From a virus: a DNA stretch of 31,808 nt. This document shows positions 1 through 26,289 of the stretch, piece after piece; the first letter of the stretch is position 1; each line of letters opens with the position of its first letter. The DNA lies in the IMG/VR virus record IMGVR_UViG_3300027933_000039; one strand, written 5' to 3'. Below the pieces are notes generated by a model. The model was not told the origin of the DNA and made no database searches. It saw nothing but the letters and a program-made list of their open reading frames with translations. The position numbers and the translations under genes are program-made.

Positions 1-408
1 TTGGCGACGATTGAGGGACAGCCGATTTCAGTCACGGTGGCAAACACGCCAAGAGTCCTTGCCACGATTGAGGGACAACCCATCTCCGTGAATGTGGCAA
101 ACACCCCATCCGTAAACGTGGCAAACACGCCAAGAGTCCTGGCTACGATTGAAGGGCAACCAATCTCCGTCACCGTGTCGAATACGCCAACGGTACTTGC
201 AACAATTGAGGGACAACCCATCTCCGTTACGGTGTCAAATACGCCCACCGTGTTAGCCACAATTGAAGGACAGCCCATCTCCGTCAACGTGGCAAACACC
301 CCTACTGTGTTAGCGACAATTGATGGTCAACCAATCTCCGTCAACGTGTCGAATACGCCCACCGTTTTAGCCACAATTGAGGGACAGCCCATCTCCGTAA
401 ACGTTACG
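1..408 (+). repeat. Coding tandem repeat, about 7 x 57 bp, with one 24-bp internal partial duplication in unit 2
   Basis: Units start at about 1, 58, 139, 196, 253, 310 and 367. The protein sequence is nearly identical between units and the DNA differs mostly at third codon positions. Confidence 0.95.
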
Positions 409-7615: not shown

Positions 7616-7690
7616 GAATGTTTTTGAATTTTAAGAATAAGAAACTAATGGAAGGGAAAGGTCATTATTCTGAGTCAACAAAGGGGTGTT

Positions 7691-10984: not shown

Positions 10985-11891
10985 TAGTTACCACCTCATA
11001 GAATAACCTAGCGACAACACTACTTAACTGTATTAACGGGTTTGCCCCCTCCTTCACCGCCTGTTCAGCCCTAGCCAGCTCCATAAGGCAAACGGCACGA
11101 TACCTCATATCAAGTTTTGAGATACTTTGGTAAATCTTCCTAAAGGCTAAGTTGTAGTCCAACCCCAAGTTTGTGTACACATCCTCCAATTGCTTTAAAG
11201 CCTCATTCAGATCTCCCTTCATTGCCAGTTGTAACACGGAGTTCATTAGGTTGGGAGATACGAGTAACTTAAGGTAGTTAAGGCTAATGTTACCACCAAT
11301 AATACTCTGTTCAAGTAAGTTCATTGTCCTCCTCAGGTCACCCTCACTCAACTCCACAATACCATTGATAACCTGTTGTACCTCCTCTTTACTCTTGAAC
11401 TTCACGTTCTCCTCCTTAAGTACCCTAACGATCATCCTTGTAAGTTCGTCTTTTGGTATGGGCTTAAACCTAAACAACGAACACCTACTTTTTATTGCGT
11501 CTATAATGTTACTCTCATTGTTACCAGTAAGTATGAAGTGTGTACTCTTCGTCTCCTCCATAATCCTCCTTAATGCAAACTGGGCATTCTGTGTCATTGC
11601 GTCAAACTCGTCCAGTAGTATAATCTTCTCCTCTACGTTCATGGCTATTGGCTTTATCCTCTCCCTTATGAACTCCAGTGTCCTGTCGTCACTGGCGTTG
11701 AACTCTATAATTGGTATACCAGCGTCGTGTGCGAATGCGTAGGCAGTACTTGTCTTTCCTAAACCTGGAGGGCCAACAAACATGAGGTGTGGAAAGTCCT
11801 TTCTCCTAATGAACTCCTTTAATGCCGCCACTATCTCCTCTTGTCCAACAATCTCATCCAACGTTTTTGGACGGTACTTTTCCGACAGCAT
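10959..11891 (-). CDS. rfcS: Replication factor C small subunit (clamp loader)
   Basis: EKYRPKTLDEIVGQ, GPPGLGKT, EFNASDDR, ILLDEFD, ALRRIME, AIKSRC. ATG 11891 overlaps the polB stop (TAATG). Confidence 0.96.
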   Translation of the reverse strand: MLSEKYRPKTLDEIVGQEEIVAALKEFIRRKDFPHLMFVGPPGLGKTSTAYAFAHDAGIPIIEFNASDDRTLEFIRERIKPIAMNVEEKIILLDEFDAMTQNAQFALRRIMEETKSTHFILTGNNESNIIDAIKSRCSLFRFKPIPKDELTRMIVRVLKEENVKFKSKEEVQQVINGIVELSEGDLRRTMNLLEQSIIGGNISLNYLKLLVSPNLMNSVLQLAMKGDLNEALKQLEDVYTNLGLDYNLAFRKIYQSISKLDMRYRAVCLMELARAEQAVKEGANPLIQLSSVVARLFYEVVTSEGKPNNS

Positions 11892-14071
11892 TACTCCCAC
11901 AACTCCAGTGTAATATCGTTTGTTATTCCCAAATTCTTGAATGGTCCTTCAATGACCGACTCAATCTGCCTCTTCCAATCCACAATAGGCTTTGGTAACC
12001 CGTCATCAACAACACACACATCCGCTGAGATTCCGTTTTCGTAACCCTTACACCAAACGTACCTTATCCTACTACCATAACCATAGTTTTTGTTAAAGTA
12101 TTTGTTAGCCAGGACTGCCGCTCTAACGTGTGGTGGAAGGGTTTTGTACTCGTCAATTCTCCTCGTAATACCCCTATACAAAGCCACGTCCTCCAAGGGC
12201 AACTCCTTTATCTTTCGTATGAAGTCATTCTTAACCTGTATTACCTCAGTCATGGGTCTTCCATCAAGTAACAACTCAAACACCTTCTCCTCCAATTCCT
12301 GAGTAATCTTGGACGAATCTGTCCTTATCGCCTCAAATCCCTTAATGTCAATCTCGTTAACCTGTTTACCCTTCTTCCACACAACCTTAGCCGCATACCT
12401 TTTCTTCACCCCAGTGAAATAGACAGCCCCTAGGTACTTCTCAAACTTTAGGCTTAAGGTAGGTTCGGACTTCAACGAGTACTTCTCCATGAAGTATCGA
12501 CGTAGATCATTTGTCAACTGTTTGGATAATTCCTCCGCCTTCTCGAAGGGTACTTGTATGAATACGCTGTCTGTGTCACCGTACAACGTTTTGTAGCCGT
12601 AACGTTTGGACTGTTCAATAACGTACTGTATACCCTCCCTAGCCAACGCCGTTATTGTACTTGCACAATCCCTGTCGTAAAACCTAGCCTGCGGATGCCC
12701 CATGTAACCGTAGGTTGAGTTTATTATGTATTTTAAAGCCATCACCTTCTTTTCCAAAGTTTTATACTCCTCGCTATCACCAGGGTACTTTTTCATCTCA
12801 TCCTCCACCTCCTCCCTCCTCTTCAGTAGAATCATAGCTAACTTGGGCATTAGCCCCGCCTTGTCCTGCCTAAAAGCCCATATCTCATCAGTAATACGAT
12901 TTAACTTTGTCTCTGGAGACACGTTGAAACTAATGATGATGGATGGGTAATACCTTGACATATCCAGGACTGCAACGTTCTCATACCTTCCCGATGGTGG
13001 GTTTAACACAATTGCACCCCTAATGGGGTTTTCATCCCTATCGACGCTAGTTGGCAACACTACACCCTCTCTCTTCGCCAACCTAAGTAGTAAAGTGTCA
13101 ATCACAATACTCGTGTAATACTGGAATGAGAAGTCCTCCACACCAACTACGTTCTTTAAAGCTTGGTAGTAATCAACAATTGAATACTTTTTATCTATCA
13201 TCACAATCCTCCATACATCACGAATGTTGTAACGTATTATCTCGTTGGGGTTTTTGGTAACCTTCACAAACTCCACTGCCTCCTCTTTCTTCTCCAATCC
13301 CTCCGAAACAGTTACCTCCTTCAGCTTATAGCTCCTTGCCCTAACAAACTCCTTATAACCGGAGAGTAAATCCAACTCCAACCATCCGTTGTAAGTAAAC
13401 TTAACGTTGAGGTGTTTTGCCCTAGCGTAAAGGTACCTCATGTCAAAACTAACATTCCAAGCCGTAACAATATCCACATCCTTTATTAGGTTGTAAACCT
13501 CCTGTATCAAGTCCTTTTCGTTAGTGAAACTACGGGCGTGGAGGTACAAAACGTACTCCTTATTGTTTGCAGTTAGCTTGTAGTAACCAGTCCTTTCCTT
13601 TGCCACATCATTCAGGTAATAGGCGTGATAATCACCCTGTATGTGTACTGTCACAGCAACAATCTTGTATATGGGGTTTTCCTCAGAGGGTAATTCGCCG
13701 TTCTCATTATCCACCTCAATGTCAATATAGGCAACGACGGGCTTAATCGTACAAGGTTTTGCCTCAAGTGTGTCAATGTCATGGCATTCCTGTATATCCT
13801 TGTCTATGAGGTACCTTCTCACGTAGGGTATATCAGCCTCGTAATGCCTCTCGTACTTCTCCCTAGCAGTCCTTACATCAATGGGAGTGTTAACGTAAAC
13901 CCTATCCAGTGGCTCACCAAACACACTCCTGTACACTCCAAGTTTTGACGGTACGTAGAAGAATGGCCTGTACTGGTAAACTTTGTACTTTTTACCACTC
14001 TCAGTCCTCCACCAAATGCCTATATCCCTCTCATTCACAACACGACTAGTTATGTACAAACCAACCGTCAT
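11891..14071 (-). CDS. polB: Family B DNA polymerase, RNA-primed archaeal type
   Basis: ExoI DIEV, ExoII WNVSFD, ExoIII YNIRD; motif A DMSRYYPSII, motif B KYIINSTYG, motif C YGDTDS; KKRY; C-terminal PIP-like DITLELW. ATG 14071 overlaps the dpdA stop. Confidence 0.98.
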   Translation of the reverse strand: MTVGLYITSRVVNERDIGIWWRTESGKKYKVYQYRPFFYVPSKLGVYRSVFGEPLDRVYVNTPIDVRTAREKYERHYEADIPYVRRYLIDKDIQECHDIDTLEAKPCTIKPVVAYIDIEVDNENGELPSEENPIYKIVAVTVHIQGDYHAYYLNDVAKERTGYYKLTANNKEYVLYLHARSFTNEKDLIQEVYNLIKDVDIVTAWNVSFDMRYLYARAKHLNVKFTYNGWLELDLLSGYKEFVRARSYKLKEVTVSEGLEKKEEAVEFVKVTKNPNEIIRYNIRDVWRIVMIDKKYSIVDYYQALKNVVGVEDFSFQYYTSIVIDTLLLRLAKREGVVLPTSVDRDENPIRGAIVLNPPSGRYENVAVLDMSRYYPSIIISFNVSPETKLNRITDEIWAFRQDKAGLMPKLAMILLKRREEVEDEMKKYPGDSEEYKTLEKKVMALKYIINSTYGYMGHPQARFYDRDCASTITALAREGIQYVIEQSKRYGYKTLYGDTDSVFIQVPFEKAEELSKQLTNDLRRYFMEKYSLKSEPTLSLKFEKYLGAVYFTGVKKRYAAKVVWKKGKQVNEIDIKGFEAIRTDSSKITQELEEKVFELLLDGRPMTEVIQVKNDFIRKIKELPLEDVALYRGITRRIDEYKTLPPHVRAAVLANKYFNKNYGYGSRIRYVWCKGYENGISADVCVVDDGLPKPIVDWKRQIESVIEGPFKNLGITNDITLELWE

Positions 14072-15060
14072 AACCAACCCTCCACGTTCTCCATGTATGA
14101 CACGTAATCGTAAAGTCCCTTATCCTTCAACATCACATCAATTGAGTCTGAGTTGTACAAATTGTAAACGTGGTCATAGAAATCCAGCAACCTCCACAGG
14201 TTGTGTAGTGTTAGTTTTACATACCAATTAATGTCTATGTAAACGTCCTTCGTAAAATTAAACCTAGTACAGACTGGACAGTGACACCTAACCTCAGACG
14301 AATACCTCTTACCAATGTAGATAGCCGAATTCTGTGTGTAAAACCTTCCGTATGCCGCCGCCATGCTGTACTTGCTACTATCCATACTTATTAACTCGAA
14401 GTAATTCCTCTTCAGTAAAGCCGAACTAATTAGCATTGCACCCTCGTTACCAGCACCAAGTAAGTGTATCTTTTTAACACCGTTTTGGTAAAGGTATAGC
14501 ATTTGCCTAACCATGGTGGAGTAATTTGTGGTTGGTCGAAAGGCTATTGCCACACCCTCAAGGTCATCTACGTAATCTCTTATTGCGTACTTGTACCAAA
14601 TTTCAATCTGTTCTAAAGTATCGCCGTGTAGGATACCCCACAGTGGCTTATCCACCTTATCCAACATAATCTTGTTATTTTTACCAGTCATCTTGGCATA
14701 ATCCTCAATCTTCTCCAGACTAACAGTCTCCATAGTGTCGTTAACTCCTGCAGGTGCGTAGTCCAAACTTAAAGCCCAGTCCGCATACTCGTTCTGAAAG
14801 TCGATCAGCTCATTGATATTTACGGGCAAACCTATAGTAAAGGTTTGCAACCCCCCACTATCAACGAAGACGAAGGCGTTACAGTCATTCAACAACTCCT
14901 TCCTTAACTTAGCCTTAGTTTGTTTGGCAGAGCCATAGGATAGCATTACCTTCTTGTATGCTATTGGCGATTCGTCACACCAGTAAATCATATCCTTTGG
15001 CAAACTGTGTAGTACCGCTAAGTAACTACCCGTGATAGCAGGAAAGAAGTACAAATTCAC
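14068..15060 (-). CDS. dpdA: TGT-fold base-exchange enzyme, DpdA-like (7-deazaguanine insertion into DNA)
   Basis: VDSGGLQ, ALSLD, GILHG, IHLLG, SMDSS, Zn site CHCPVC...HN; 330 aa with no PUA domain; lies between folE and polB. Confidence 0.8.
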   Translation of the reverse strand: MNLYFFPAITGSYLAVLHSLPKDMIYWCDESPIAYKKVMLSYGSAKQTKAKLRKELLNDCNAFVFVDSGGLQTFTIGLPVNINELIDFQNEYADWALSLDYAPAGVNDTMETVSLEKIEDYAKMTGKNNKIMLDKVDKPLWGILHGDTLEQIEIWYKYAIRDYVDDLEGVAIAFRPTTNYSTMVRQMLYLYQNGVKKIHLLGAGNEGAMLISSALLKRNYFELISMDSSKYSMAAAYGRFYTQNSAIYIGKRYSSEVRCHCPVCTRFNFTKDVYIDINWYVKLTLHNLWRLLDFYDHVYNLYNSDSIDVMLKDKGLYDYVSYMENVEGWL

Positions 15061-15539
15061 TGGCTACACCTCCTTGTAACCATAACACTGTTATTCCGTA
15101 TTCCTCTCATTAACACACAGTAGTGTTTACCAGTAACCACAACACTTAGCCGCTTTGGCTGAAGACAGGAATAGAGTATCTCGTAAAGCAAGTTAGTGTA
15201 TTCCTCCTGTACTCTGGGATACCTGGCTAAGTCCCTTGCTATTCTACTAAACTTCGACATACCCAGTATCCTTCCGTTGGGTACGTACACGATCTCTATC
15301 TTCATGTCCACCGGAAGGAAGTGATGGGGGCATAACATGTACGTGTCATTAACCACAATCTTAACCTCTCCTTGGTGGTTGCTTGGAAAGGTCACACAGT
15401 ACTTCTCCTTTATCTCCTCCAGAGGGATAAGGGTAGTATACTCCTCAAGCCACCTCTGCATCCTCAATGGTGTCCTGTTGAAGTGTGGGTCGCTTAAATC
15501 TACGTTTTTAAATACGTCAATAGCCCCTTTCTCTTCCAT
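15057..15539 (-). CDS. folE: GTP cyclohydrolase I
   Basis: TPLR, LCPHHFLP, GMSKFSRI, RVQEE, HYCVLMRG. Confidence 0.95.
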   Translation of the reverse strand: MEEKGAIDVFKNVDLSDPHFNRTPLRMQRWLEEYTTLIPLEEIKEKYCVTFPSNHQGEVKIVVNDTYMLCPHHFLPVDMKIEIVYVPNGRILGMSKFSRIARDLARYPRVQEEYTNLLYEILYSCLQPKRLSVVVTGKHYCVLMRGIRNNSVMVTRRCSQ

Positions 15540-16200
15540 GTGCCACCACGTGTATCTGTAAGTATGCCTTGAACATTGTATACCTTTGACTTACGAGGTC
15601 AAACAACCTCGTAAACATGTTGAGGTCACTTGTGGTTACGTAGATGGGGTAATCCCTTAGTAACATGGCGTAGTCCTGCAGTATTTCATCCAAATCCTCC
15701 GGTAGCTTACTCGTTACGAACTTAAATATCGTCCTATCTGGGCTATACTCGTTATTGGCATACCTGTAATTCACCCCTGAGCTCCTCAGCTTTGGAGAGA
15801 CAGCCCAGTAAACCTTGGAGTGATCACTGTTCAATGCCTTCTGTATCTCCTCGGGTATTCTAACCGTGCCATTCGTCTCTATCACAAACGCCTCAAATTT
15901 ATTGTACAACTTTTTGTACAATGCATAAACTTGCGTTATGTACATCGTAGGCTCCCCACCCGTTATCACAAGCACTCTAATTCCCTTCTGCCTACTTACA
16001 TCATCCACCCACTTTGCTATACTGTCAATATCTCGTAAAGTATAGTCACCCGTATCGTAGCTGTACTTAGTATCACACCAAACACACCTTAAGTTACAGC
16101 CGTAGAACCTAAGGAAGGTTGATGGGTAACCCCACAACGGTGGCTCGCCGTTAATACTGGTGAACACCTCGTTGACCGGTAACGCATCAGTTGACGGCAT
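15517..16200 (-). CDS. queE: 7-carboxy-7-deazaguanine synthase (radical SAM)
   Basis: EVFTSINGE, FLRFYGCNLRCVWCDT (CxxxCxxC), ITGGEP, ETNG, VSPK. Confidence 0.96.
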   Translation of the reverse strand: MPSTDALPVNEVFTSINGEPPLWGYPSTFLRFYGCNLRCVWCDTKYSYDTGDYTLRDIDSIAKWVDDVSRQKGIRVLVITGGEPTMYITQVYALYKKLYNKFEAFVIETNGTVRIPEEIQKALNSDHSKVYWAVSPKLRSSGVNYRYANNEYSPDRTIFKFVTSKLPEDLDEILQDYAMLLRDYPIYVTTSDLNMFTRLFDLVSQRYTMFKAYLQIHVVAHGRERGY

Positions 16201-16202
16201 GG

Positions 16203-16613
16203 CTATTCCACCACCACATTGTAGTCTATTCTGGATTTATCGTTTTCTTCCACCTTTATGGAGTAGGACTGTACTTTAGCCTTCCTACTGTTCACCTTCT
16301 TTATTATCTCTCCAAAGGGTATGGTAGATTCAAGGTACATGGCAAGTCTTTCTGCTGATGCGTTATCCCCAACGTAATCGTTTAACGACTTGTGATCAAT
16401 CCTATCAATCACTGGTTTCACATACTCATCAAGCTCCGTAAAGTCCATATAATAACCTACATCTGGCAATTCAGTAATAGCGGCTGTAAGGCAGATTGTT
16501 ATCAAGTAGTTATGCCCATGTAGATTACGGCATTTAGTGTCGTATGCCAACGCTATCCTATGTGCCATGCTAGCCCTGTAATCTTTACAAATCTCTAGTA
16601 TCCTTTGCGTCAT
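16203..16613 (-). CDS. queD: 6-carboxy-5,6,7,8-tetrahydropterin synthase
   Basis: AHR, CRNLHGHNY, MDF, DHKSLND, SAERLA. Confidence 0.95.
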   Translation of the reverse strand: MTQRILEICKDYRASMAHRIALAYDTKCRNLHGHNYLITICLTAAITELPDVGYYMDFTELDEYVKPVIDRIDHKSLNDYVGDNASAERLAMYLESTIPFGEIIKKVNSRKAKVQSYSIKVEENDKSRIDYNVVVE

Positions 16614-16780
16614 CAGTCCTCACCTAAGTCCCTTCTCACCAAGTCCCGTATGTACTCTGCGTACGTCCGGCATCCCTTCTCCTTCATACTTTTATCCACC
16701 CTTGTCCTCCATTCTGACGGTAGGGACACCGTCAGAACCCATAAATCCTTCGTTTTTTCTAAACTTTTTTCTTCATACAT
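16613..16780 (-). CDS. Ribbon-helix-helix (CopG-like) regulator, 55 aa, absent from the supplied ORF track
   Basis: Hand translation MYEEKSLEKTKDLWVLTVSLPSEWRTRVDKSMKEKGCRTYAEYIRDLVRRDLGED; its TGA overlaps the queD ATG (TGATG); TATA box about 25 nt upstream. Confidence 0.8.
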   Translation of the reverse strand: MYEEKSLEKTKDLWVLTVSLPSEWRTRVDKSMKEKGCRTYAEYIRDLVRRDLGED

Positions 16781-16801
16781 TGAGTAAAAAGGACGACGCT
16801 A

Positions 16802-16813
16802 ATATAAAAAGTC
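16802..16813 (-). promoter_or_regulatory. TATA box (GACTTTTTATAT) of the RHH-queD-queE-folE-dpdA-polB-rfc operon
   Basis: Located 22-33 nt upstream of ATG 16780 in the only intergenic gap. Confidence 0.65.
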
Positions 16814-16844
16814 TGTGTTTTCTACCCAAAAACAATGGAATAAA

Positions 16845-17774
16845 TCAGTCATACCACCAATTGTGGTATTCACAAACGTTACAGCCTATTCCCCTCTGTT
16901 TCAACACGGAACAGGAGACGGGGAATAGCTTCTTCTGCTTCACCTTTTCATACAACTTGATGACGTGGTACTTACTTATGTTGTAGTCGAAATTCTCCCA
17001 TCCCATCTTCCTCAAAATGTTAACAACACTCTCAACATCGTAACCAAGGTAGATTAGCTCAAGGGCAAACTGCGTCCTTATAAAGTGATCAGGTTTCTTA
17101 GTGTACGCCTGTCTAAAAACACAAGGTCGTACAATCTCACTAACCGTACTTAACTCCACATCGTCAATCTTGTAACTAGTAACCTCAAAGGACACATCCT
17201 TAACCTTCCTACTGTAATCTACATAAACGGTTATGTCGTACTCCTTGCCGTGGTGGACGATGAGAGGATTTGGATGTTCACTGTCCTTAAGTATAGTGTT
17301 GAAATCGGCGTGGCAAGGTACGTAGGTGCAATACCTTCCGTTTAAGTGAATTGTGTTTGGTATACGTATCAGTCCATTACCCGTAGCCAACCTTATGCTG
17401 GTGTTGTAGTCCCAACTTTTTAACTGTAATTCATCTCTTATGTAGTTTATAAATCCCATAAAATACAGTTTTGTCATTTCATTCAATGGGATCGGCTTTA
17501 TCTTCAGATAGAAGTGAAAACCCTTCCTTCCACTAAAAACGTGTACGTGTTGAAAATTACTAAAGTACTCACAAAGGGTGTTGTTGTCCTCATAACTAGT
17601 AACACCATCCAGGTCAAAAATGAAGTAGTTGATTTGGCTAGAGAATTTGTATGGGTTATAAAAAAGATTTGCAATACCATTATACCTATTTATTACGTAT
17701 TGTATATCATCCACAACTTTTCTAAAAAACTTACCTCCGTTTTCAATGCCGACCTCAAACTTCAATCTCCTCAC
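16845..17774 (-). CDS. Archaeo-eukaryotic primase, fused PriS plus PriL-CTD-like
   Basis: FDLD (motif I), FSGRKGFH (motif II), IRIPNT (motif III); C-terminal RPCV...HFIR...SC...C..C resembling the PriL Fe-S domain. Confidence 0.85.
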   Translation of the reverse strand: MRRLKFEVGIENGGKFFRKVVDDIQYVINRYNGIANLFYNPYKFSSQINYFIFDLDGVTSYEDNNTLCEYFSNFQHVHVFSGRKGFHFYLKIKPIPLNEMTKLYFMGFINYIRDELQLKSWDYNTSIRLATGNGLIRIPNTIHLNGRYCTYVPCHADFNTILKDSEHPNPLIVHHGKEYDITVYVDYSRKVKDVSFEVTSYKIDDVELSTVSEIVRPCVFRQAYTKKPDHFIRTQFALELIYLGYDVESVVNILRKMGWENFDYNISKYHVIKLYEKVKQKKLFPVSCSVLKQRGIGCNVCEYHNWWYD

Positions 17775-18484
17775 TTTACTCTCTGGTTAAGTAGGTAGGC
17801 TATTACTGAGTACTTGTCTGGTTTCCCTATCATTAATTGGTATGCCTTACCCTTCATCAACACTAGGCTAATCTTGCCACTTAACACGCTAGTTATCTTG
17901 TTGATTAGGTTAGCGTCAAAATAGACGTCGAAGTCCTCAGTAGCCTTTTCACCGTAGAATATACGTGATGACTCCCCCTCGAGATACTTAAACTTTATCA
18001 TCAATCCCTTTTCGTTGCTTACAAACTGCACTGTATTCTCATCCGTCTTTATACTAGCAAGTGCGTCAGCGTCCACTGTATAGTTTGCTATAATTGTCCT
18101 TTCGAAAACCGGTAACTGTCCAAACTCAAAAGACTTGGGTTTCATAATGTTGTCAATGACGGCATCCTCCCTCATCTTCACTACGTAGCTGGTGTCACTA
18201 TTGGAGATTATAATATCTGTATCCGTCACAGTAAACTCAGCAATTGGGTTATACTTAAACAGGTTTCTTATTACCTTCATTGTACTATCAGCTGAGATTA
18301 CTACCTTCTTATCCAACGGCAGGTACTCCCTGCTGTACTTTGCGTGTATTCCTACCATCCTACCCTTATCCATCAAATCCACGTTTACTGTCTTCTCGTC
18401 GGGTGTTAGCTTTACAACATCTATGTAACCATCTAAACTTACTTGCTTTATTACGTCATATAACCTATTCAAATCGAACTGCAT
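17771..18484 (-). CDS. pcn: DNA sliding clamp (PCNA-like)
   Basis: 237 aa two-domain alpha/beta pattern; DLMDKGRMVGI (cf. MDxSxVxLV), VYFDANLI, C-terminal IAYLL; replisome context. Confidence 0.8.
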   Translation of the reverse strand: MQFDLNRLYDVIKQVSLDGYIDVVKLTPDEKTVNVDLMDKGRMVGIHAKYSREYLPLDKKVVISADSTMKVIRNLFKYNPIAEFTVTDTDIIISNSDTSYVVKMREDAVIDNIMKPKSFEFGQLPVFERTIIANYTVDADALASIKTDENTVQFVSNEKGLMIKFKYLEGESSRIFYGEKATEDFDVYFDANLINKITSVLSGKISLVLMKGKAYQLMIGKPDKYSVIAYLLNQRVK

Positions 18485-18486
18485 TT

Positions 18487-19401
18487 TTACTCACCCATTA
18501 AGGAAGTTATGCCCTTGCCAGTAATGTCATATTCTCCTGGTTTTAGTTTTTCCGGATTCTTGGTAGTCACAACTCTAGCCTTATAACCGTCCTTATAGTA
18601 TGCGTGAATGACGTAGTCACTCTCAAACATTATTATATCAACCCACTTTGGTACCTTCCTCTGTTGTGTCACCTCGCCGTCGTTAATTATCTGTTCCATT
18701 GTAGTGTACATAGTGTAGATTACCCCCTTTCTTGCGACATTTAACGCAAGGTTGTGTACATGCCTCAGTAGGAATCTCCTCTCCTTCCACAGGTTTAGGT
18801 TGGCTATTCCCTGGAAGGCTGTCAGCCCATGGTTTGCCCTCATCACAAATTCGCTAATCTGTTCAAGTATCTCCACGCCGTCAATCAACACCCAGTCCAC
18901 ACCATTCTCCCCAAACTTGTGGAATATCTCCTCAATAACGTCAAATACCTTCTTTGATGTAACCACTACAGATCTATCGTCCGTCTGCACCCAGAACTTG
19001 ACTGGATCATAGACGTGTATATCTTTCCTATTCTTGTACAAATTCCACCTTATTGGAGAGGTCTTCCTGTCGAAGGATAACGCCAATATCTCTCCTGGGA
19101 ATGATAAAGCCAATGTAGTCTTACCCTCACCCTTGTCACCATATATAACGAATACCTCCTTACCAGTCGTTAGCTCCTCCTCTATCTCGATCTCTCCACC
19201 CTTTTCTTCGGTTTTTGTAGTCGTGTTGTTTACATTAACCATGGGCTTTTCCTCCTCCTTTGTCGTTGTCCTCTCCTCACTAACCAATTCATCCAGTTGT
19301 ACCTCGGCTTTCCTCTCCGTTTGTTTTGTTGTCTCCTTCTTCTCCTCCTTCACTTCTTCCTTCTTTTCCTCTCCAACCAATTCATCGAATATATCCGACA
19401 T
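18487..19401 (-). CDS. P-loop ATPase, Sak4/AAA_24-like annealing protein, with an acidic disordered N-terminus
   Basis: IYGDKGEGKTTLA (Walker A), VLIDG (Walker B); adjacent to an SSB. Confidence 0.65.
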   Translation of the reverse strand: MSDIFDELVGEEKKEEVKEEKKETTKQTERKAEVQLDELVSEERTTTKEEEKPMVNVNNTTTKTEEKGGEIEIEEELTTGKEVFVIYGDKGEGKTTLALSFPGEILALSFDRKTSPIRWNLYKNRKDIHVYDPVKFWVQTDDRSVVVTSKKVFDVIEEIFHKFGENGVDWVLIDGVEILEQISEFVMRANHGLTAFQGIANLNLWKERRFLLRHVHNLALNVARKGVIYTMYTTMEQIINDGEVTQQRKVPKWVDIIMFESDYVIHAYYKDGYKARVVTTKNPEKLKPGEYDITGKGITSLMGE

Positions 19402-19412
19402 GTGTTGTCACC

Positions 19413-20219
19413 TCAAACTAAGGGTATTGGAGTAATAGGGATTATGCCTTGAACCATAAACTGCGTCACCCCATTCTTGTCCATCTGCAAAGTCCCATAC
19501 ATGTAAAGTTCGCTACCCTCGTCGTACTTGTATAAAGGTGGAGGAATCCAGCAAGTCAACGTACTGTCGGGATTGTTAGGATCGCTTAGCTCGTAAACCC
19601 CAAACACCACGTTACCCTTATCGTCCTTCTTGTAGTTCGCCCTCGTTACGATACCCTGTGTTGCCCTTAGGTCAAACTCGTCGTAATACTGCCCGTTCAT
19701 CCTACTCAACATGTTATATGCGTTATTTATCTCAAATTCAGCGAAGTTTGTGGTATCTTTCTTCAATATAGCCAATACCTTTTGTGGGTCGACAGGTTTT
19801 CCGTTCACGAAGTTCGTATTTGCGGTCGCGAGCAACGCACCCTTACCTGTCTCAACAACGTTGACAGTGTAGAGGTGGAATAGTTGTGCGTTCTGGTAGA
19901 GAACGCTCATGTCATCGAAGAGGGTTATAACTCCCTTCCTATCACCCTCCTCCGTACTGTATATGACGTAAACCCTGGCAATTTTTCTCTTTGCCTTCTG
20001 TATCGGCTCCCTAAGCCCGTAGACAATCACCTTCAAGTCCTTACCAACCGGCTTCGCCAGCATCTTTGCCCTGTAGTAGATGAACGCCTGTGTCAGCCTC
20101 TTCTTCTCGTCTGGTATTGCGGCAAACTTAGTGTCCGCCAACTCCTTCACCCTCCTTTTAACCTCATCTACGCTCATGTGTAGTCTTTCCGCCAGTGTTG
20201 CTATATCCCTTTCACTCAT
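19413..20219 (-). CDS. OB-fold single-stranded DNA-binding protein (RPA-like)
   Basis: Helical N-terminus followed by two beta-barrel-like regions (GVITLFD, LTCW, LYMYGTL); lies between replication genes. Confidence 0.65.
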   Translation of the reverse strand: MSERDIATLAERLHMSVDEVKRRVKELADTKFAAIPDEKKRLTQAFIYYRAKMLAKPVGKDLKVIVYGLREPIQKAKRKIARVYVIYSTEEGDRKGVITLFDDMSVLYQNAQLFHLYTVNVVETGKGALLATANTNFVNGKPVDPQKVLAILKKDTTNFAEFEINNAYNMLSRMNGQYYDEFDLRATQGIVTRANYKKDDKGNVVFGVYELSDPNNPDSTLTCWIPPPLYKYDEGSELYMYGTLQMDKNGVTQFMVQGIIPITPIPLV

Positions 20220-20421
20220 CTTCCACCACCTTCAACAATTCCCCATCTTCGTACAACCAGCCACCGTTTCTTTTGGCATATTCCATTGCTAACATCCTTG
20301 CGTATGTGGGGCTTACATCAAGCAACAGGGAAATCTCTAAAACCTTCAACCTTCTCAACCTCCGTTGCCTGATGTGTTCTTCCAAGCTGGACAGGAGTTT
20401 TTCTCTGTTGTACTTTTGCAT
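20212..20421 (-). CDS. Small HTH/wHTH protein (69 aa)
   Basis: LEISLLLDVSPTYARML HTH pattern followed by a beta-wing; first gene after a TATA box. Confidence 0.6.
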   Translation of the reverse strand: MQKYNREKLLSSLEEHIRQRRLRRLKVLEISLLLDVSPTYARMLAMEYAKRNGGWLYEDGELLKVVEDE

Positions 20422-20453
20422 GTGTGTGTTAGTGTAACACAGGTTTAAAAGTT
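20422..20453 (-). promoter_or_regulatory. Promoter of the HTH-SSB-ATPase-PCNA-primase operon, with a GTGTWACAC palindrome
   Basis: The minus strand reads AACTTTTAAACC-T-GTGTTACAC-TAACACACAC-ATG. Confidence 0.65.
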
Positions 20454-20499
20454 TAACTTTATAAAGGTTAGAAAATCCTCGTGGTCTATTCTAGAAAAA

Positions 20500-21345
20500 T
20501 TATTTCGTTTGGCTGACGTTTTTCGTAGTGTTTGTGGTTACTGGATTGGAGGACAGCTTATTTAACTCCTTGAGGAATTCGTTCACGTTCACGTTTACCT
20601 TCACCCCGTATTTCTTAGCTGACAACATAACACTGCCCCACATCTGTAACGTTAATTCCCTTGCGTTCTTGTACCACTCGAGTAGCTTGTCACTCACCTT
20701 CCCATCTATAAAAACGTCATTAACTATCACTACCCTTGGGTCGATGTCGTAAAAGTACTTAACAACGTGTGGCTTATGCCTCTTGATAAACTCTATCTCA
20801 ATGGGAAGGATGAACTCGCTGGAGAATGGCTTTGGATGGTAGACAAGTAGTCCATCATCGTGGCAGTAATTATCTCCACCACTCTCCAAATACCTCCACA
20901 ACAAGTCCGTGTCACTTCTCCACCCATATCCTGCGTTACCAAACTTAGGATTGCCCCAATCCTCCTCAAACCCGCCAAGCCTTCTAAAAACCTCGGTTTT
21001 AACCGTTAGGTTGGTACCAATTGCATGATATGCCTGTCCAAAAAACCTACCGTTGCTGTACACGTAACCCGTAATAATGTCACATCCCTTCCTAATATTC
21101 CTCAACAGGTTTTGATACCAATTTGTACTTGGGTATGCGTCATCGTCGATGAAGGAGATGTAAGGGGTTGTAACACCCTCAGCCACAAGATTCCTAACGA
21201 CATATTCGTTGACGGTTGGGTCGTAATACGGTATTACCTCTGCCTCTGTGTACTGGCGGATGTATGGCATAGTCTTAAATATTGACTCCCTCAACAAAGT
21301 TGGTATGACAATAGTCGTGTACTTGCCTCGTGTATTCTCCCTCAA
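20500..21345 (-). CDS. GT2 (GT-A fold) glycosyltransferase
   Basis: IVIPT, YISFIDDDAY (DxD), GTNL, GGFEE, SDTDL. Confidence 0.9.
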   Translation of the reverse strand: MRENTRGKYTTIVIPTLLRESIFKTMPYIRQYTEAEVIPYYDPTVNEYVVRNLVAEGVTTPYISFIDDDAYPSTNWYQNLLRNIRKGCDIITGYVYSNGRFFGQAYHAIGTNLTVKTEVFRRLGGFEEDWGNPKFGNAGYGWRSDTDLLWRYLESGGDNYCHDDGLLVYHPKPFSSEFILPIEIEFIKRHKPHVVKYFYDIDPRVVIVNDVFIDGKVSDKLLEWYKNARELTLQMWGSVMLSAKKYGVKVNVNVNEFLKELNKLSSNPVTTNTTKNVSQTK

Positions 21346-22292
21346 GCCTTCACACCTCGTGTTTCCGTTAAACCTAACCCCTTCAACATGTCACTAACCA
21401 CACGTCTAACGTCTTCCGCCCACCTATTCACTGAGAAGAACTCCCTTGCCCTCTTCCTTAACAAAGCCCTGCTTATCTTAGTGACTTCATTCACCCCATT
21501 CACGAAGCAGTCTATATCGTCGTGTCTACAGTAAACTCCCCCATCCATCAACACACCAGTCCTGACCTCCTTACCGAAGGACAACAACTCGGATGTACCT
21601 TCACCACTAGTAACAACTGGACAACCCGACAGCATTGCCTCCATTGCCACAATCCCCAGGCTTTCAATACTGGACAGTGACCTCCAATCACTAGGCATTA
21701 CTAATGCGGACGCATGCGACAACAACTCATACTTTTCCTCATCATCTATGTTAATCCTGTATTCAACACCATTCATGTATCTCCTCATTAAATGCCTGGC
21801 GTAGTAACCATCAGAAAATTTACCAACATGCCCAGCCAAAATAATCCTTCTTCCTAGCTTTCTAGCCACCTCTATTGCCAAGTCAGGTCTCTTTATCTCA
21901 CTAAACCTACCTAGGAAGAGTAAGTAACCCTCATCACCTTCTGGCTTATCGATATAACTTACCCCAGGATAGCTCACAAAACCTGGTAACTTATACATGT
22001 TCGCAATTGCACGAGTTGTATACATGTTGTAACGTAGGCTAGCAGGATCGGGATGGAATGGTACACCAAGAACTAAACTACCTAAGTTTTGAAAATATTT
22101 TTGGTGAGAGAAGTCGAACATGGCGTCATAATTCGTGTTGATGTCATCGTAAGTCATCACATCATCCGTCCTTGGTACACCGAAGATGTCGGCGTTTAAT
22201 TCCTTACCTAAGTCGTAAGCCAACCTTTCAACACCCCCGTAACGAAGTGGGGGTGTCTTCTCCTCCTTAGTCGATATGACTGCAAATCTCAC
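21342..22292 (-). CDS. GT4 (GT-B fold) glycosyltransferase
   Basis: PPLRYGGVER, FLGRFSEIKRPD, ESLGIVAMEAMLSGCPVV. Confidence 0.92.
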   Translation of the reverse strand: MRFAVISTKEEKTPPLRYGGVERLAYDLGKELNADIFGVPRTDDVMTYDDINTNYDAMFDFSHQKYFQNLGSLVLGVPFHPDPASLRYNMYTTRAIANMYKLPGFVSYPGVSYIDKPEGDEGYLLFLGRFSEIKRPDLAIEVARKLGRRIILAGHVGKFSDGYYARHLMRRYMNGVEYRINIDDEEKYELLSHASALVMPSDWRSLSSIESLGIVAMEAMLSGCPVVTSGEGTSELLSFGKEVRTGVLMDGGVYCRHDDIDCFVNGVNEVTKISRALLRKRAREFFSVNRWAEDVRRVVSDMLKGLGLTETRGVKA

Positions 22293-23256
22293 GGTTGTTC
22301 ACCATCGCATGGCTGTAGTCCATTACCATTATGTTTAAACCCTCAGTTAATGGTAGAAACTCCTTACTCTGCCAGAATTTCTTCAACCTAGTGTTATCCA
22401 GTAGTAGGCTGTTGGGATCTACAGGACGGGGTTTCACACCCCACACAACCTCCCCATCCCACTCTGTATACCTTTTGGCTAACTTAACTATCTCATCCAA
22501 CGTCTCAGCGTTGTCCTTTGCGACATTTATTACGTTACCAACATCGTTCACCCTCTCCAAATGATCCAATGCGTACTCGTACATTGAAACGTGATCAGTA
22601 TAATGTATCCACTGCCTTTGGGATTGCGGATAACCATGATAGCTTATCTTCTTAAAACCACACAACATTGACAACACTGTCTTCTCCACAAAGTAACCCC
22701 TAGCCTCTTCCGGTAACTTAAACACATCCCTGTGGTAGGTGTTTGTCATTCTAAAGATCAAGTAGTTTTTGCGTCGTGTGGAGTAGTGATGGTGTATAAG
22801 CATCTCCTGACCAATCTTGCTTATTGCGTAAGGTGAGGATACATCCGTGATATTTACATCCTCCTCCTTAAACTTCTTCGAGAAGTCCGCCACGGAAAGA
22901 TATGGGTAAACCTCGGCTGTGCTTGCGTGAATTAGGAAGGTGTCCTCGTGTTTGTCAAGGTATTGTAATACATTCTGTACCAACAAAAGATTGTTTACCA
23001 AGTACTGTTGTGAATTGTCGTAACTATACCTCACTGGGGTGATACTTGAGAGGTTTATAAGCACATCCAACTCAACGTTCTTTGGTATAGGGTTACTCGT
23101 CAGATCTACCTCAACGTAATCCACACCTTCAACCCTATTCCTTGAGAAACCGTCATTCCTTACAAAACCAACTACTTTATAACCCTTCTTCACGAGCCTT
23201 GAGGACAACTTTGAGCCTATAAAACCCGTTACACCTGTTATTCCTACTTTCATCAA
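22267..23256 (-). CDS. NAD-dependent NDP-sugar epimerase/dehydratase (extended SDR)
   Basis: ITGVTGFIG, ASTAEVY, SPYAISK (YxxxK), RQWIH. Confidence 0.92.
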   Translation of the reverse strand: MMKVGITGVTGFIGSKLSSRLVKKGYKVVGFVRNDGFSRNRVEGVDYVEVDLTSNPIPKNVELDVLINLSSITPVRYSYDNSQQYLVNNLLLVQNVLQYLDKHEDTFLIHASTAEVYPYLSVADFSKKFKEEDVNITDVSSPYAISKIGQEMLIHHHYSTRRKNYLIFRMTNTYHRDVFKLPEEARGYFVEKTVLSMLCGFKKISYHGYPQSQRQWIHYTDHVSMYEYALDHLERVNDVGNVINVAKDNAETLDEIVKLAKRYTEWDGEVVWGVKPRPVDPNSLLLDNTRLKKFWQSKEFLPLTEGLNIMVMDYSHAMVNNREICSHID

Positions 23257-23330
23257 CAGATGTTACAGAAGATTGAATAATAAGCCTTGTTTGAGTTGGT
23301 ATTCTCGTGGTAGAAAAATACGTGTACGCC

Positions 23331-23624
23331 TCAATCGTACAGAATACGTAACAACACTAGTTTTGTGGGTAGTTTACCGTGGTATTTCCTCCTTAGGTGA
23401 GACAACCACTCATCGACATTCTTGAAAGTACTATACTGTACATAATCCCCAAGAATTTTCCGTACGTCACCGTTCCTCAAGTTTACAACCTCCACGACCC
23501 TGGCCCTCACTCTTTCGTTCAACCTCACAATTCTACCAGGAGGAAGAGTCTGATTTCTAACAACGGCGTAGAAATCAGGTGTGGAGAGTAAATAAAGGAA
23601 AAACCTTTTGCCTTCTACCTTCAA
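23331..23624 (-). CDS. ASCH/PUA-like domain protein (97 aa)
   Basis: Beta-rich core (PPGRIVRL...RARVVEV) and C-terminal YSTFKNVDEWLSHLRRKY resembling the ASCH GFxsxeEw...Y element. Confidence 0.5.
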   Translation of the reverse strand: MKVEGKRFFLYLLSTPDFYAVVRNQTLPPGRIVRLNERVRARVVEVVNLRNGDVRKILGDYVQYSTFKNVDEWLSHLRRKYHGKLPTKLVLLRILYD

Positions 23625-23633
23625 TAGATAATA

Positions 23634-25007
23634 TTACATCACTGGATCTTTCAATCCATTTATCTCGAACGCCTTCTTTCTCATAAAACACGGACCACAC
23701 TTACCACAGTGTTTCTTCCTCCCCTCATAACAACTCCACGTGATCTCGAAGGGTACTTTCAGTTCGTAACCTAGCCTGACAATCTCATGTTTCATTAGAT
23801 TGCCAACCGGCATTAACAACCTTATTCTCCTTCTTGGTTCCGTTGCCAACGGTAAAACCCTGTCCAACAAGATGTTAAACTCCATCTCATTATCAGGATA
23901 GGCACCTGACTCCTCCAGGTTTATCCCAGTACCAACGGCGTCAAACCCGTTAGCCTCAGCCAACGCCACTGCGACACTAACGAAGACTAGATTTCTAGCT
24001 GGTACCCATTCGTATGCGTACTCTGCCCCAACAATTCCTCCCCTATCCTTCGCTATTGGTATTTTACTACCCTTAAGCAAGTTAGTCCCTCCAATAACCT
24101 TAAACATGGAGGAGGTATCCATTGTAATCAACTCAAGGTTGTAATACTCCGAGATCTTCTTTACAGCTGTGAGCTCAGGTCCCTCAGCCTTGTGATGATA
24201 ATTAAAGTGTAGTAACGTAACCTTATGCCCCCCATTCAGTAGTTTTGCCGTAGCCACAGTACTATCAAGCCCTCCACTAGCTATCATTAACACCTTCATC
24301 TGTTCAGCCGTCTTCAACAGGTTATACTTTGTAAAGCTATCTTGTGAGAAACAATACATCGTATAAGGTTCGACATACGTTGTGTTCACCTTACTGTAAA
24401 CCTCACGGGGATAGTACCTCTCCAAGGACGTGATGACTAAGTAATTATTCTCAAAGTCGTTATGTATGTAGGCGGGCTTATAGTCAACACTAACGCATAA
24501 CTCTCCCCTCCTCACATTTGTGAAGACCATGGCGTGTGATCCCCTAAACTCCTCCGAGAGGAATCTGCTCACACCCTCATAAGACCCAATCCTTGAGAAT
24601 ATACGTGGTAAGACTGCACTGTCGATGTTTGTATCCAGTATTAAACCGTACTTCTGTATCAACTCCTTATCGTTAGCAACCACACCGTTGTGTGAAACAA
24701 TCCAGTCGTTATATTGGAAGGGTTGGATATCCTTTGGGCTTTTGTTAGGTACGTACTCCGTCGTTGGCTCAGCCCTATTATTCCCTATAATCATCTTGGG
24801 CTTCATCCTAATCAGGAAGTCCTTGACAATGTCGTAGTCAGGTGTACCAGTACCCTTCAACACCTCAACCTCACCATTCTCCCTTATGGCGTAAATTCCC
24901 CAGCTATCCCTTCCTCTGTCTGAACTATCTACAAAGGATTTGGAGATCTTACTTGCCTTCTTGTCATCCAACTCCTCACGGATGTAGACACCGAATATGC
25001 TACACAT
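23634..25007 (-). CDS. queC: Gat-QueC fusion: Ntn glutamine amidotransferase plus preQ0 synthase (archaeosine-base forming)
   Basis: N-terminal MCSIFG, RGRDSWG, QPF, HNG; QueC SGGLDST, VPARN, YPDN, TWSCY, CGKCGPC. Confidence 0.95.
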   Translation of the reverse strand: MCSIFGVYIREELDDKKASKISKSFVDSSDRGRDSWGIYAIRENGEVEVLKGTGTPDYDIVKDFLIRMKPKMIIGNNRAEPTTEYVPNKSPKDIQPFQYNDWIVSHNGVVANDKELIQKYGLILDTNIDSAVLPRIFSRIGSYEGVSRFLSEEFRGSHAMVFTNVRRGELCVSVDYKPAYIHNDFENNYLVITSLERYYPREVYSKVNTTYVEPYTMYCFSQDSFTKYNLLKTAEQMKVLMIASGGLDSTVATAKLLNGGHKVTLLHFNYHHKAEGPELTAVKKISEYYNLELITMDTSSMFKVIGGTNLLKGSKIPIAKDRGGIVGAEYAYEWVPARNLVFVSVAVALAEANGFDAVGTGINLEESGAYPDNEMEFNILLDRVLPLATEPRRRIRLLMPVGNLMKHEIVRLGYELKVPFEITWSCYEGRKKHCGKCGPCFMRKKAFEINGLKDPVM

Positions 25008-25040
25008 ACGTGTGTGTTACACGTACTAACTTAAAAAGTT
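25007..25040 (-). promoter_or_regulatory. gat-queC promoter with palindromic elements
   Basis: The minus strand reads AACTTTTTAAGTT...GTGTAACAC/TAACACACAC-GT-ATG; inverted repeat TACGTGT-N5-ACACGTA at 25007-25025. Confidence 0.6.
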
Positions 25041-25206
25041 TCAGTTTTTGAAGATTCAGGAATTGGTGTAATTAACCTGAATTTAGCCTCCTCCTTTCCA
25101 TCCACAATCTAGTCTTACCCATGAGTTTTTAACTTTCTGGTATTGATTACAGTACCGACATTTTGAATCCCCAAAAAGTTAAGTACTTGTCGTATGAGTA
25201 AACTTC

Positions 25207-26289
25207 ATGAAAGAAAAGGTAATGATTGCGTCAGATGGGCCAAACTTTAACACGGGTTACGGAAAACTTGGTAGAGTTTTAACGAATGGGCTGATAGCAA
25301 ACGGTTACGATGTCTCATACGTGTCATTCCAACATCAAGGTAATCCTCTTTACTATATTTTTATGAACCAAAAGGTCAAGGTTTACAGTGGTTTAACCCA
25401 ACAACTGATTGAGGAGGCGGTGAGAGAGTTTAAGCCCGATGTACTAATACACATAAGGGATCCGGTAGTACACACGGAATACTACAAGTATCCATATCAA
25501 TTCGACAGGATAAGGAAGAGTACAAAGACTATAGGATATTTAATGGTTATGCACGACTACTTCGACTCCAAGGTAATGAAGGCAATTGTTGTTAATTATG
25601 ATATCGTTGCAACCCCAACGGAATGGGGCAGGAGAGTACTAGTATCGTCTGGTATGCCGATCAACCTAGTGTACACCGTTAAACCGTGGATACCCAGGCC
25701 AGTAAAACCGGAGAAGGTACAGGGGCTTCCGGATAAATACCTTCTGTTCATAGGTGTGAATGACGATAGGAGAAAGAACCACGCACTCCTATTACACGTT
25801 TTAAGCAAGTTACCAGAGGAATACAAACTGGTTTTACTAAGTGGTAGCGGTGCGTACATACTTGAGAGTATTATAGAGAGATATGCCTTGTACAACAGAG
25901 TTTACACACCCCAATCTTATCTGAAAGGTTACGGTCTTACGGAGGAGGAGTTGGCGTACATTTACTTGAATGCACACGTATACGTAACCTTATCCTCCCT
26001 GGAGGGGATAGACATGCCGGCGTTAGAGGCGTTAACCTATAACACCCCAGTGGTTGCAAGTGAAATACCAGTCCACAAGGAGTTACTATCCCCTTACGCA
26101 AAATTTGTGAAGGTTAACCTTGGTTACCCTGATACGAGCGGAGTGTACTGGATTCCAGACGTGGATGACGCAGTGGAGAAGATAATGTCAATAGGAGGGG
26201 TAAGGCATAAATATGGGAGGAAGGTGTACTCGACTTACAATGTAAATAGGGCGATAAGTGACTTCAGACAACTATTTAATCTCGCTTGA
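25207..26289 (+). CDS. GT4 (GT-B fold) glycosyltransferase
   Basis: TGYGKLG, RKNHA, HVYVTLSSLEGIDMPALEALTYNTPVVAS. Confidence 0.9.
   Translation: MKEKVMIASDGPNFNTGYGKLGRVLTNGLIANGYDVSYVSFQHQGNPLYYIFMNQKVKVYSGLTQQLIEEAVREFKPDVLIHIRDPVVHTEYYKYPYQFDRIRKSTKTIGYLMVMHDYFDSKVMKAIVVNYDIVATPTEWGRRVLVSSGMPINLVYTVKPWIPRPVKPEKVQGLPDKYLLFIGVNDDRRKNHALLLHVLSKLPEEYKLVLLSGSGAYILESIIERYALYNRVYTPQSYLKGYGLTEEELAYIYLNAHVYVTLSSLEGIDMPALEALTYNTPVVASEIPVHKELLSPYAKFVKVNLGYPDTSGVYWIPDVDDAVEKIMSIGGVRHKYGRKVYSTYNVNRAISDFRQLFNLA

Follow-up and report, generated by a model that had tools for sequence, protein, structure and literature searches.

A DNA polymerase-linked set of 7-deazaguanine genes predicted to modify the DNA of a Sulfolobales-type virus

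Introduction

Can a virus of thermophilic archaea make a 7-deazaguanine from GTP and place it in its own DNA, and if so, which base would it make? The question is raised by the IMG/VR virus record IMGVR_UViG_3300027933_000039, a stretch of 31,808 nt analysed here at its full length (the window), in which an original prediction had placed folE, queD, queE, a tRNA-guanine transglycosylase (TGT) gene lacking a PUA domain and overlapping the start of the gene for a family B DNA polymerase (PolB), and a gat-queC fusion gene 7 kb away. Phages and haloarchaeal viruses are known to use 7-deazaguanine bases in their DNA against restriction, and full pathways to these bases have been described for haloarchaeal tailed viruses. 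The hyperthermophilic crenarchaeal viruses in published surveys had only a lone DpdA (rudiviruses) or DpdA with ArcS (STSV1/2) (PMC10516641). We examined if the window encodes a complete pathway, what its transglycosylase is related to, and what the gene neighbourhood says about the substrate. We hold, with modest confidence, that some guanines of the viral DNA are replaced after replication by a virus-encoded 7-deazaguanine, the predicted main product being deoxyarchaeosine (dG+).

Results

Pathway genes and their operon

All five genes were found where they had been predicted, on the minus strand, with family matches and intact signature motifs (Table 1). They lie within 11 kb, and five pathway genes with such E-values so close together cannot be chance. 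The gene order is QueD-QueE-FolE-TGT-PolB-RFC-nuclease-AAA; between queD and the AAA gene at 9628, the first junction is a gap of 2 nt and each later pair of genes overlaps, in turn by 23, 4, 10, 10, 26 and 26 nt. Because of these overlapping junctions, the TGT-like gene is placed in one operon with PolB, a homologue of the RFC small subunit and a PD-(D/E)XK nuclease. Also on the minus strand, gat-queC starts 7.0 kb upstream of queD, and ~28 nt before its ATG there is a TTTTTAAG box, which is probably the archaeal promoter of a leaderless gat-queC mRNA.

The enzymes suggest the following scheme. FolE, QueD and QueE would convert GTP to 7-carboxy-7-deazaguanine (CDG); the QueC half of Gat-QueC would take CDG to preQ0, and the glutamine amidotransferase half would turn the nitrile of preQ0 into a formamidine, giving archaeosine (G+). 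P0001, the DpdA-like transglycosylase of 330 aa, would exchange guanine in duplex DNA for the deazaguanine by the double-displacement mechanism of TGTs, in which Asp227 would be the nucleophile and Asp67 the general acid/base, the base being recognised by Asp100 and His145; the zinc site would be structural. Modification would follow replication closely, since the transglycosylase shares an overlapping operon with PolB, RFC and the PD-(D/E)XK nuclease. The likely benefit is that the viral DNA would be shielded from host nucleases. The modification may serve the anti-restriction, anti-CRISPR or heat-stabilising roles suggested in the original prediction.

Fold and catalytic residues of the transglycosylase

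Family scans gave no above-threshold match for P0001 (none in Pfam; TIGR00449 only sub-threshold, E 5e-4), so that calling it a TGT needed a family profile and a structural model. In tblastn it was ~25% identical to jumbo-phage genes annotated as "queuine tRNA-ribosyltransferase". Searched alone against PDB sequences it matched bacteriorhodopsin, a spurious hit which again showed that a profile was needed; a word-based protein search found only one variant, 95% identical, an IMG/VR pattern search no match, and PADLOC no Dpd match for P0001. An exhaustive HMMER search (E up to 1e-3) assembled a family of 368 cluster representatives, of which 60 served for the profile and alignment and 150 for residue tallies. 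The alignment was invariant (60/60) at D67-S68-G69-G70, D100, H199, D227, C259, C261, C264 and H286, and at least 148 of the 150 members kept the three catalytic Asp (D67, D100, D227) and the zinc ligands C259/C261/C264/H286. The profile matched archaeal TGT (arcTGT) 1iq8 at E 3e-21, bacterial and eukaryotic TGTs at ~1e-10 and the bacterial DpdA 7ui4 at E 4e-9; 41 of the 60 aligned members matched Pfam TGT.

The AlphaFold model of P0001 (predicted local distance difference test (pLDDT) 91.9; predicted template modelling score (pTM) 0.91) had arcTGT as its best solved-structure match (1iq8/1j2b), superimposing on 1j2b with Z 25.2 and a root-mean-square deviation of 3.6 Å over 296 residues at 17% identity. 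Catalytic Asp and zinc site are shared. Residues 1-326 of the model cover residues 32-352 of the 576 of the arcTGT chain, and residues 27-379 of the Z. mobilis TGT; arcTGT has ~30 additional residues at its N-terminus and ~230 at its C-terminus (domains C1, C2 and PUA). Judged from these aligned ranges, P0001 is a bare catalytic barrel that has neither the N-terminal lid nor any of the C-terminal tRNA-binding domains. It has the features expected of the DpdA fold, i.e., a TGT TIM-barrel, three invariant Asp and a structural zinc site, and the modelled loss of the lid agrees with bacterial DpdA, for which absence of the lid has been described (PMC10164549). The residues of DpdA and TGT found essential by mutagenesis or structure correspond to the three Asp and the zinc ligands of P0001 (PMC10164549).

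The original prediction had taken the missing PUA domain as the mark of a DpdA. The domain is indeed missing, but as the sole discriminator from arcTGT this does not serve; the loss of the lid and of the C-terminal domains, the His at position 145 and the linkage to PolB are better ones. An arcTGT can do without its PUA domain and stay active, so a missing PUA domain by itself proves little. By architecture P0001 is no arcTGT: it has 330 aa as opposed to 530-625 aa and covers only residues 32-352 of 1j2b. H145 aligns with a His of 9g DpdA1, STSV2_15, the phi3ST:2 DpdA and the Motura TGT, and we infer its equivalence to His181 of S. Montevideo DpdA. Gln occupies this position in three arcTGTs and in the DpdA2-type proteins, and DpdA2 has been described as lacking the conserved His of DpdA (Hutinet et al.).

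Placement among DpdA subfamilies

The best pairwise references of P0001 were phage proteins from deazaguanine clusters, namely the TGT of jumbo-phage BUDD (E 8e-12), ASD50403 of phage ACP17 (8.5e-11, 26% identity), which is listed as DpdA2 in the supplementary table of Hutinet, and STSV2_15 (5e-8); the values for the Motura TGT, arcTGT and 9g DpdA1 were 4e-9, 1e-5 and 3e-4. The family profile ranked these references differently: Motura TGT 111 bits, arcTGT catalytic domains 54-92, ACP17 DpdA2 72, BUDD TGT 57, STSV2_15 48, 9g DpdA1 29 and Rosebush 12, with no match to HVTV-2 gp68 (E 1.3), a presumed DpdA4 chosen by its position and length.

Membership of DpdA1 is not indicated by the low profile scores of 9g DpdA1 and Rosebush and the pairwise E of 3e-4, nor is membership of DpdA4, P0001 having no Pfam match to the DpdA4 domain (DUF6610, PF20314). 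DpdA2 is nearest pairwise (E ~1e-11). The DpdA2 of Vibrio phage nt-1 (Foldseek E 3e-13) and that of ACP17, with the BUDD and Motura TGTs, are the best viral matches, and all sit in preQ0 clusters; yet the DpdA2 proteins are 424-473 aa long with Gln, as opposed to 330 aa with His, ACP17 and BUDD fall into a clade of their own on a long stem, and the pairwise scores with P0001 fall below the alignment-score cut-off of 15 of the published similarity network.

In a quick maximum-likelihood tree of the TGT superfamily, P0001 fell within a fully (100%) supported clade of ten metagenomic proteins, and the arcTGT, DpdA1 and DpdA2 references stood on separate long branches, the deep nodes being poorly resolved with long-branch joins. 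The tree, built without bacterial TGT, bacterial DpdA and DpdA3, was used for the local clade and its separation from arcTGT only. A TGT phylogeny had been proposed as a check of DpdA against arcTGT; it sets the P0001 clade apart from arcTGT and leaves the deep relationships of DpdA and arcTGT unresolved. We conclude from these comparisons that the P0001 clade appears distinct from the DpdA1, DpdA2 and DpdA4 references compared, and that its nearest characterised relatives are DpdA2 and arcTGT. A literature search found no name for a further DpdA subfamily.

Linkage to PolB in related elements

The contigs that carry other family members came from hot-spring metagenomes or from metagenome-assembled genomes (MAGs) of hyperthermophiles (Desulfurococcaceae, locus L095; Archaeoglobaceae; Thermofilum); the JGI record of one is named after "EchG", which we take to be Echinus Geyser. 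Relatives were present in the samples JGI 3300025462, 3300005964 and 3300000340 and ENA ERZ27246777. The relatives have a common replication module (x268, AAA_24, x237, PrimPol, the TGT-like gene, PolB and ERCC4, plus RFC and a PD-(D/E)XK nuclease), and their PolB proteins are 33-44% identical to that of the window. In 8 distinct loci (the window, L005/L006, L007/L008, L012, L013, L186, L187 and L188) the TGT-like gene is directly upstream of PolB, usually overlapping it; in L010/L095 it is 7 kb from PolB.

The deazaguanine genes near this pair differ from locus to locus. L188 has QueD, QueE, FolE and a plain QueC; L186 has QueE, QueD, FolE and a second radical SAM protein; L007 has QueE, FolE, a methyltransferase and two QueC paralogues; and L005, L012 and L010 have QueF-like, PIG-L-type deacetylase, GT4-like transferase and radical SAM(-SPASM) genes, with a QueT or YhhQ-type transporter in the last two. 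L187 keeps the TGT-PolB pair without any biosynthetic genes. This fixed coupling to PolB is the strongest contextual argument for DNA as the substrate. In phages too, the insertion enzyme is constant and base synthesis variable (PMC10516641).

Several details of these loci were recorded alongside. In L005 (627-4985), L012 (5385-11092) and L010 (3578-11122) the module by the transglycosylase runs QueF-like, a small open reading frame (ORF), PIG-L-type deacetylase, GT4-like and radical SAM(-SPASM), with the transporter upstream (QueT in L012, YhhQ/Vut_1 in L010); the GT4 and PIG-L pair recalls transfer of N-acetylglucosamine followed by deacetylation, and these three viruses may make a sugar-bearing, preQ1-type DNA base. 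In L007 (6524-11035), from a hot-spring metagenome, QueE, FolE, the SAM methyltransferase and the QueC paralogues (216 and 277 aa) come directly before the transglycosylase and PolB, and QueD was not seen nearby. In L012 the transglycosylase gene is followed directly (11092-13361) by a PolB split into adjacent ORFs of 458 and 296 aa. L095 (contig CAZVLA010000052.1) is the same virus-like element as L010 and forms the end of a 71-kb contig that was binned into a MAG of Desulfurococcaceae; either a provirus or a viral contig assigned to the wrong bin could account for this.

Origin of Gat-QueC

With the cellular Gat-QueC enzymes of Acidianus, Saccharolobus, Sulfolobus, Metallosphaera and other Sulfolobales, the viral Gat-QueC shared 47-51% of its residues along the whole protein; identity was 43-46% to the proteins of Thermoproteales and Thaumarchaeota, and 37.5-39% to that of phage 9g (37.5% over 100% of the length). 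The catalytic residues of both halves (Cys2 in MCSIFG, RGRD, HNG, D129 and SGGLDS) and the C-terminal Cys cluster C426/C434/C437/C440 are invariant with the cellular and 9g proteins, so that the nucleophile Cys, the PP-loop motif SGGxDS and the zinc cysteines are all present. The protein is taken as the preQ0 synthase and as a predicted archaeosine-base synthase.

In a tree rooted on 9g the viral protein lies inside the Sulfolobales clade on a long stem (Shimodaira-Hasegawa-like approximate likelihood-ratio test 97), apart from Vulcanisaeta, Caldivirga, Thaumarchaeota and Bathyarchaeia. It follows from this nested position that the virus acquired the gene from a host akin to Sulfolobales, in an event separate from the origin of the phage Gat-QueC. 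An ORF at the end of L188 was considered as a second Gat-QueC and rejected, since Pfam showed the N-terminus of a plain QueC; among the loci compared, Gat-QueC is therefore confined to this virus and its near-identical variants.

Host and type of virus

A two-gene cassette at 4480-5738 on the minus strand encodes proteins of 225 and 211 aa (phrog_11741, E 1e-50; phrog_31381, E 6e-45). The 225-aa ORF (4480-5157) has 53% identity to SIFV0067 from the lipothrixvirus Sulfolobus islandicus filamentous virus (SIFV), and the 211-aa ORF corresponds to SIFV0068 by PHROG match and gene order; weaker copies of the cassette occur in Acidianus betalipothrixviruses. The placement of Gat-QueC and this cassette point to a virus of Sulfolobales or of a close thermoacidophile relative. 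The virus is uncultured and comes from a hot spring. Searches of the window found no terminase, portal or known capsid family, and an Atlas search with a 251-aa candidate structural protein gave sub-threshold leads only. The window (31.8 kb) may be incomplete, so that the type of virion, including the predicted "non-tailed" one, is not settled by it.

The left-edge ORF (1-747, plus strand) contains seven 57-nt (19-aa) tandem repeats (1-398) and has weak matches to beta-flower families and to minor-tail or fibre-like ones; the edge of the window may have truncated a fibre or adhesin gene here. The replication operon is adjoined at 6665-9133 by divergent genes for a prenyltransferase of the UbiA family (PF01040, E 2e-11) and for an S8 protease resembling subtilisin (E 2e-42); the relative L186 has an S8 protease too.

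Sugar-transfer genes next to gat-queC

gat-queC heads a block with the 97-aa ORF, a gene for an NAD-dependent sugar epimerase/dehydratase, GT1 and GT2 genes and a divergent GT1 (GT1/GT4-type) gene. Its products might act in glycosylating the virion or in decorating the base further. Glycosyltransferase clusters of Sulfolobales viruses often serve virion glycosylation, and SIFV, a Sulfolobales virus without deazaguanine genes, has a glycosyltransferase. No similarity (E below 1e-5) was detected between the transferases of the window and those in the deazaguanine modules of the relatives, which makes base decoration the minority possibility.

Homologues of the 97-aa ORF were found only at 85-94% identity, in 14 metagenomic clusters; since these variants span several JGI and ENA samples, the virus is a recurrent population. 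The model of this ORF (pLDDT 60) had no significant fold match, ASCH-type proteins appearing only at E above 1.

The window as a whole

The GC content of the window is ~43%. Between 10 and 24 kb the GC skew is strongly negative, and this stretch is filled by a unidirectional, minus-strand string of genes 15 kb long. No terminal repeats were found in the window. When 11000-26000 was compared by megablast with 50,697 records of phages and archaeal viruses, no match was found, and the window is therefore not a deposited isolate. An exact look-up of the ribonucleotide reductase (RNR) protein of the window, aimed at extending the genome, found nothing. The pattern of the 55-aa ORF that heads the operon resembles a ribbon-helix-helix (RHH) protein; Pfam gave no confirmation of this.

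Table 1. Genes of the proposed modification system and adjoining ORFs in the window.
Feature	Coordinates	Strand	Evidence and remarks
55-aa ORF, candidate small regulator heading operon	16613..16780	-	stop overlaps queD start (TGATG); from translation
queD, 6-carboxytetrahydropterin synthase (136 aa)	16203..16613	-	PF01242 E 4e-21; TIGR03367 QueD E 1e-19; phrog_2389; Cx3HGH motif CRNLHGH at residue 28
queE, radical SAM protein	15517..16200	-	PF04055 E 5e-15; phrog_2076 QueE-like E 4e-41; TIGR03963 E 5e-24; CNLRCVWC at residue 35
folE, GTP cyclohydrolase I (160 aa)	15057..15539	-	PF01227 E 9e-30; phrog_2197 E 4e-31; CPHH motif
DpdA-like guanine transglycosylase P0001 (330 aa), TGT catalytic barrel only	14068..15060	-	profile, fold model and motifs; overlaps folE by 4 nt and polB by 10 nt
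Family B DNA polymerase (PolB), translationally coupled to transglycosylase	11891..14077	-	PF00136 E 2e-48; PF03104 E 8e-17
gat-queC, class II glutamine amidotransferase-QueC fusion (457 aa, P0153)	23634..25007	-	GATase_6/7 and QueC E 3e-54; full-length phrog_10428 E 7e-105
97-aa ORF, possible accessory	23331..23624	-	9 nt downstream of gat-queC; phrog_17595 E 1e-7

Discussion

Comparison with known systems

The closest parallel is phage 9g (FolE, QueD, QueE, Gat-QueC and DpdA1; PMC6884629), which has the same five functions and is likewise self-sufficient in synthesis from GTP; its dpdA adjoins clamp and DNA polymerase genes, as the window transglycosylase stands beside replication genes. Expressed in E. 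coli, DpdA of 9g by itself puts dPreQ0 into DNA; together with Gat-QueC it gives dG+ at 9-18% of G (PMC6884629). By this analogy the gene set of the window should give dG+.

The original prediction spoke of the same gene set as in 9g, complete and self-contained in a thermophilic archaeal virus. The gene identities and intact signature motifs agree with this as regards function; in terms of orthology the sets differ, because the transglycosylase is not a DpdA1. That of the window aligns through the CxCxxC...H zinc site, unlike that of 9g, its Gat-QueC is of cellular Sulfolobales origin and not of the phage clade, its gat-queC is 7 kb away, and the host is a thermophilic archaeon.

The literature background of that prediction was also borne out: Gat-QueC and DpdA of 9g yield dG+ (PMC6884629), HVTV-1 contains dPreQ1 and STSV-2 a trace of dCDG (PMC10516641). 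STSV2, a Sulfolobales virus, resembles the window in a short TGT-fold protein with the His signature (STSV2_15, E 3e-9, as in P0001), but that protein has no zinc motif, and the virus has no preQ0 pathway, encodes ArcS (ArcS2) and not Gat-QueC, and contained 0.04% dCDG (PMC10516641). HVTV-1 and HVTV-2 (dPreQ1, DpdA4, QueF) are archaeal viruses with FolE, QueD, QueE and QueC by PolB and RFC; they differ in having QueC and QueF and not Gat-QueC, in being tailed and haloarchaeal, and in the absence of a family-profile match for the presumed DpdA4 gp68.

Points that weigh against dG+ in the viral DNA

Several observations tell against our preferred reading of dG+ inserted into viral DNA. In STSV-2, dG+ was expected from DpdA and ArcS and 0.04% dCDG was found (PMC10516641), so that predictions from gene content can fail. 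The viral Gat-QueC descends from a cellular enzyme thought to serve archaeosine synthesis in tRNA, and its gene stands 7 kb from the other pathway genes, inside a sugar-transfer cluster. Work on 9g left undecided whether Gat-QueC acts on free or on DNA-bound preQ0, and with it the order of amidation and insertion (PMC6884629); in the present virus amidation might likewise come before or after insertion. His145 is shared by 92 of the 150 family members tallied and replaced by Gln in 57. Lastly, the family profile ranks arcTGT catalytic domains (85-92 bits) above 9g DpdA1 (29 bits) and the deep tree is unresolved, so that the case for DNA specificity is built on architecture and context.

Other products and other substrates

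The same machinery might modify the DNA and yield a base other than dG+: dPreQ0, if Gat-QueC worked as a QueC only, or dADG, dCDG or a further decorated base, e.g., a glycosylated one. We regard this as unlikely, and still as the alternative to be taken most seriously. The dCDG of STSV-2 in place of the predicted dG+ speaks for it, as do the GT2, the two GT1/GT4-type transferases, the NAD-dependent sugar epimerase/dehydratase and the 97-aa ORF that flank gat-queC, and the GT4-like, PIG-L-type deacetylase and radical SAM genes placed within the deazaguanine module by the transglycosylase in L005, L010 and L012; the differing gene sets across the lineage imply a plastic chemistry. However, both halves of Gat-QueC keep every catalytic residue, the only tested combination of Gat-QueC with DpdA, that of 9g, yielded dG+ (PMC6884629), the window transferases have no detectable similarity to those of the relatives' modules, and glycosyltransferases occur also in Sulfolobales viruses without deazaguanine genes, such as SIFV.

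A wider suggestion, which we think rather doubtful, is that the PolB-coupled short transglycosylases are a new DpdA subfamily, centred on archaeal viruses and acting at or behind the replication fork, in which a fixed insertion enzyme is combined with varied tailoring genes (Gat-QueC in the window; QueF-like, PIG-L deacetylase, GT4 and radical SAM in relatives), so that some members, possibly including the virus of the window by way of the sugar genes linked to its gat-queC, would carry a sugar-decorated 7-deazaguanine new to DNA.

It could also be that the genes are auxiliary metabolic genes that raise archaeosine in tRNA of the host or of the viral phase, the short TGT being a minimal tRNA enzyme and the DNA unmodified. 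The nesting of Gat-QueC within cellular tRNA-pathway enzymes of Sulfolobales would fit, as would the resemblance of the family profile to the arcTGT catalytic core (E 3e-21) and the dispensability of the arcTGT PUA domain. Yet P0001 is without the N-terminal lid and all C-terminal domains and not the PUA domain alone, and it has His where arcTGTs have Gln; the arcTGTs of three archaeal genomes are separate, full-length proteins of 530-625 aa; the TGT-PolB pair is conserved even in L187, an element without biosynthetic genes; and the window has zero tRNA genes. DpdA-family proteins in viruses are, moreover, a published signature of DNA modification (PMC10516641). We therefore consider a role confined to tRNA very unlikely.

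Least credible of all is a plasmid-like or integrated element, and no virus, with a Dpd-like restriction-modification system marking self from non-self: bacterial dpd islands do mark DNA through DpdA (PMC10164549), L007 and L187 carry integrases and some relatives were binned in archaeal MAGs, but no DpdB-K homologue or PADLOC match was found beyond QueC (no PADLOC Dpd match in the proteins tested, no ParB-like DpdB in Pfam scans of the window), and the window has its own replisome, a two-gene cassette up to 53% identical to lipothrixvirus SIFV0067/0068 (at SIFV0067) and many near-identical variants across metagenomes.

Significance

Systems of this kind are known; the novelty lies in the group of hosts, in finding the whole pathway in a virus of this type, in the divergent clade of PolB-coupled transglycosylases and in the independent cellular origin of Gat-QueC. 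A self-sufficient set of genes for dG+ in a Sulfolobales-type virus is a clean test case. It would tell whether archaeosine occurs in DNA at 70-85 °C and whether a Gat-QueC derived from the tRNA pathway can be used for DNA, and what effect a cationic base has on host nucleases, on CRISPR targeting and on the stability of the duplex. The family of PolB-coupled transglycosylases (at least 368 cluster representatives) marks an uncultured lineage of viruses in which the deazaguanine module has diversified, and in which new DNA bases may be sought.

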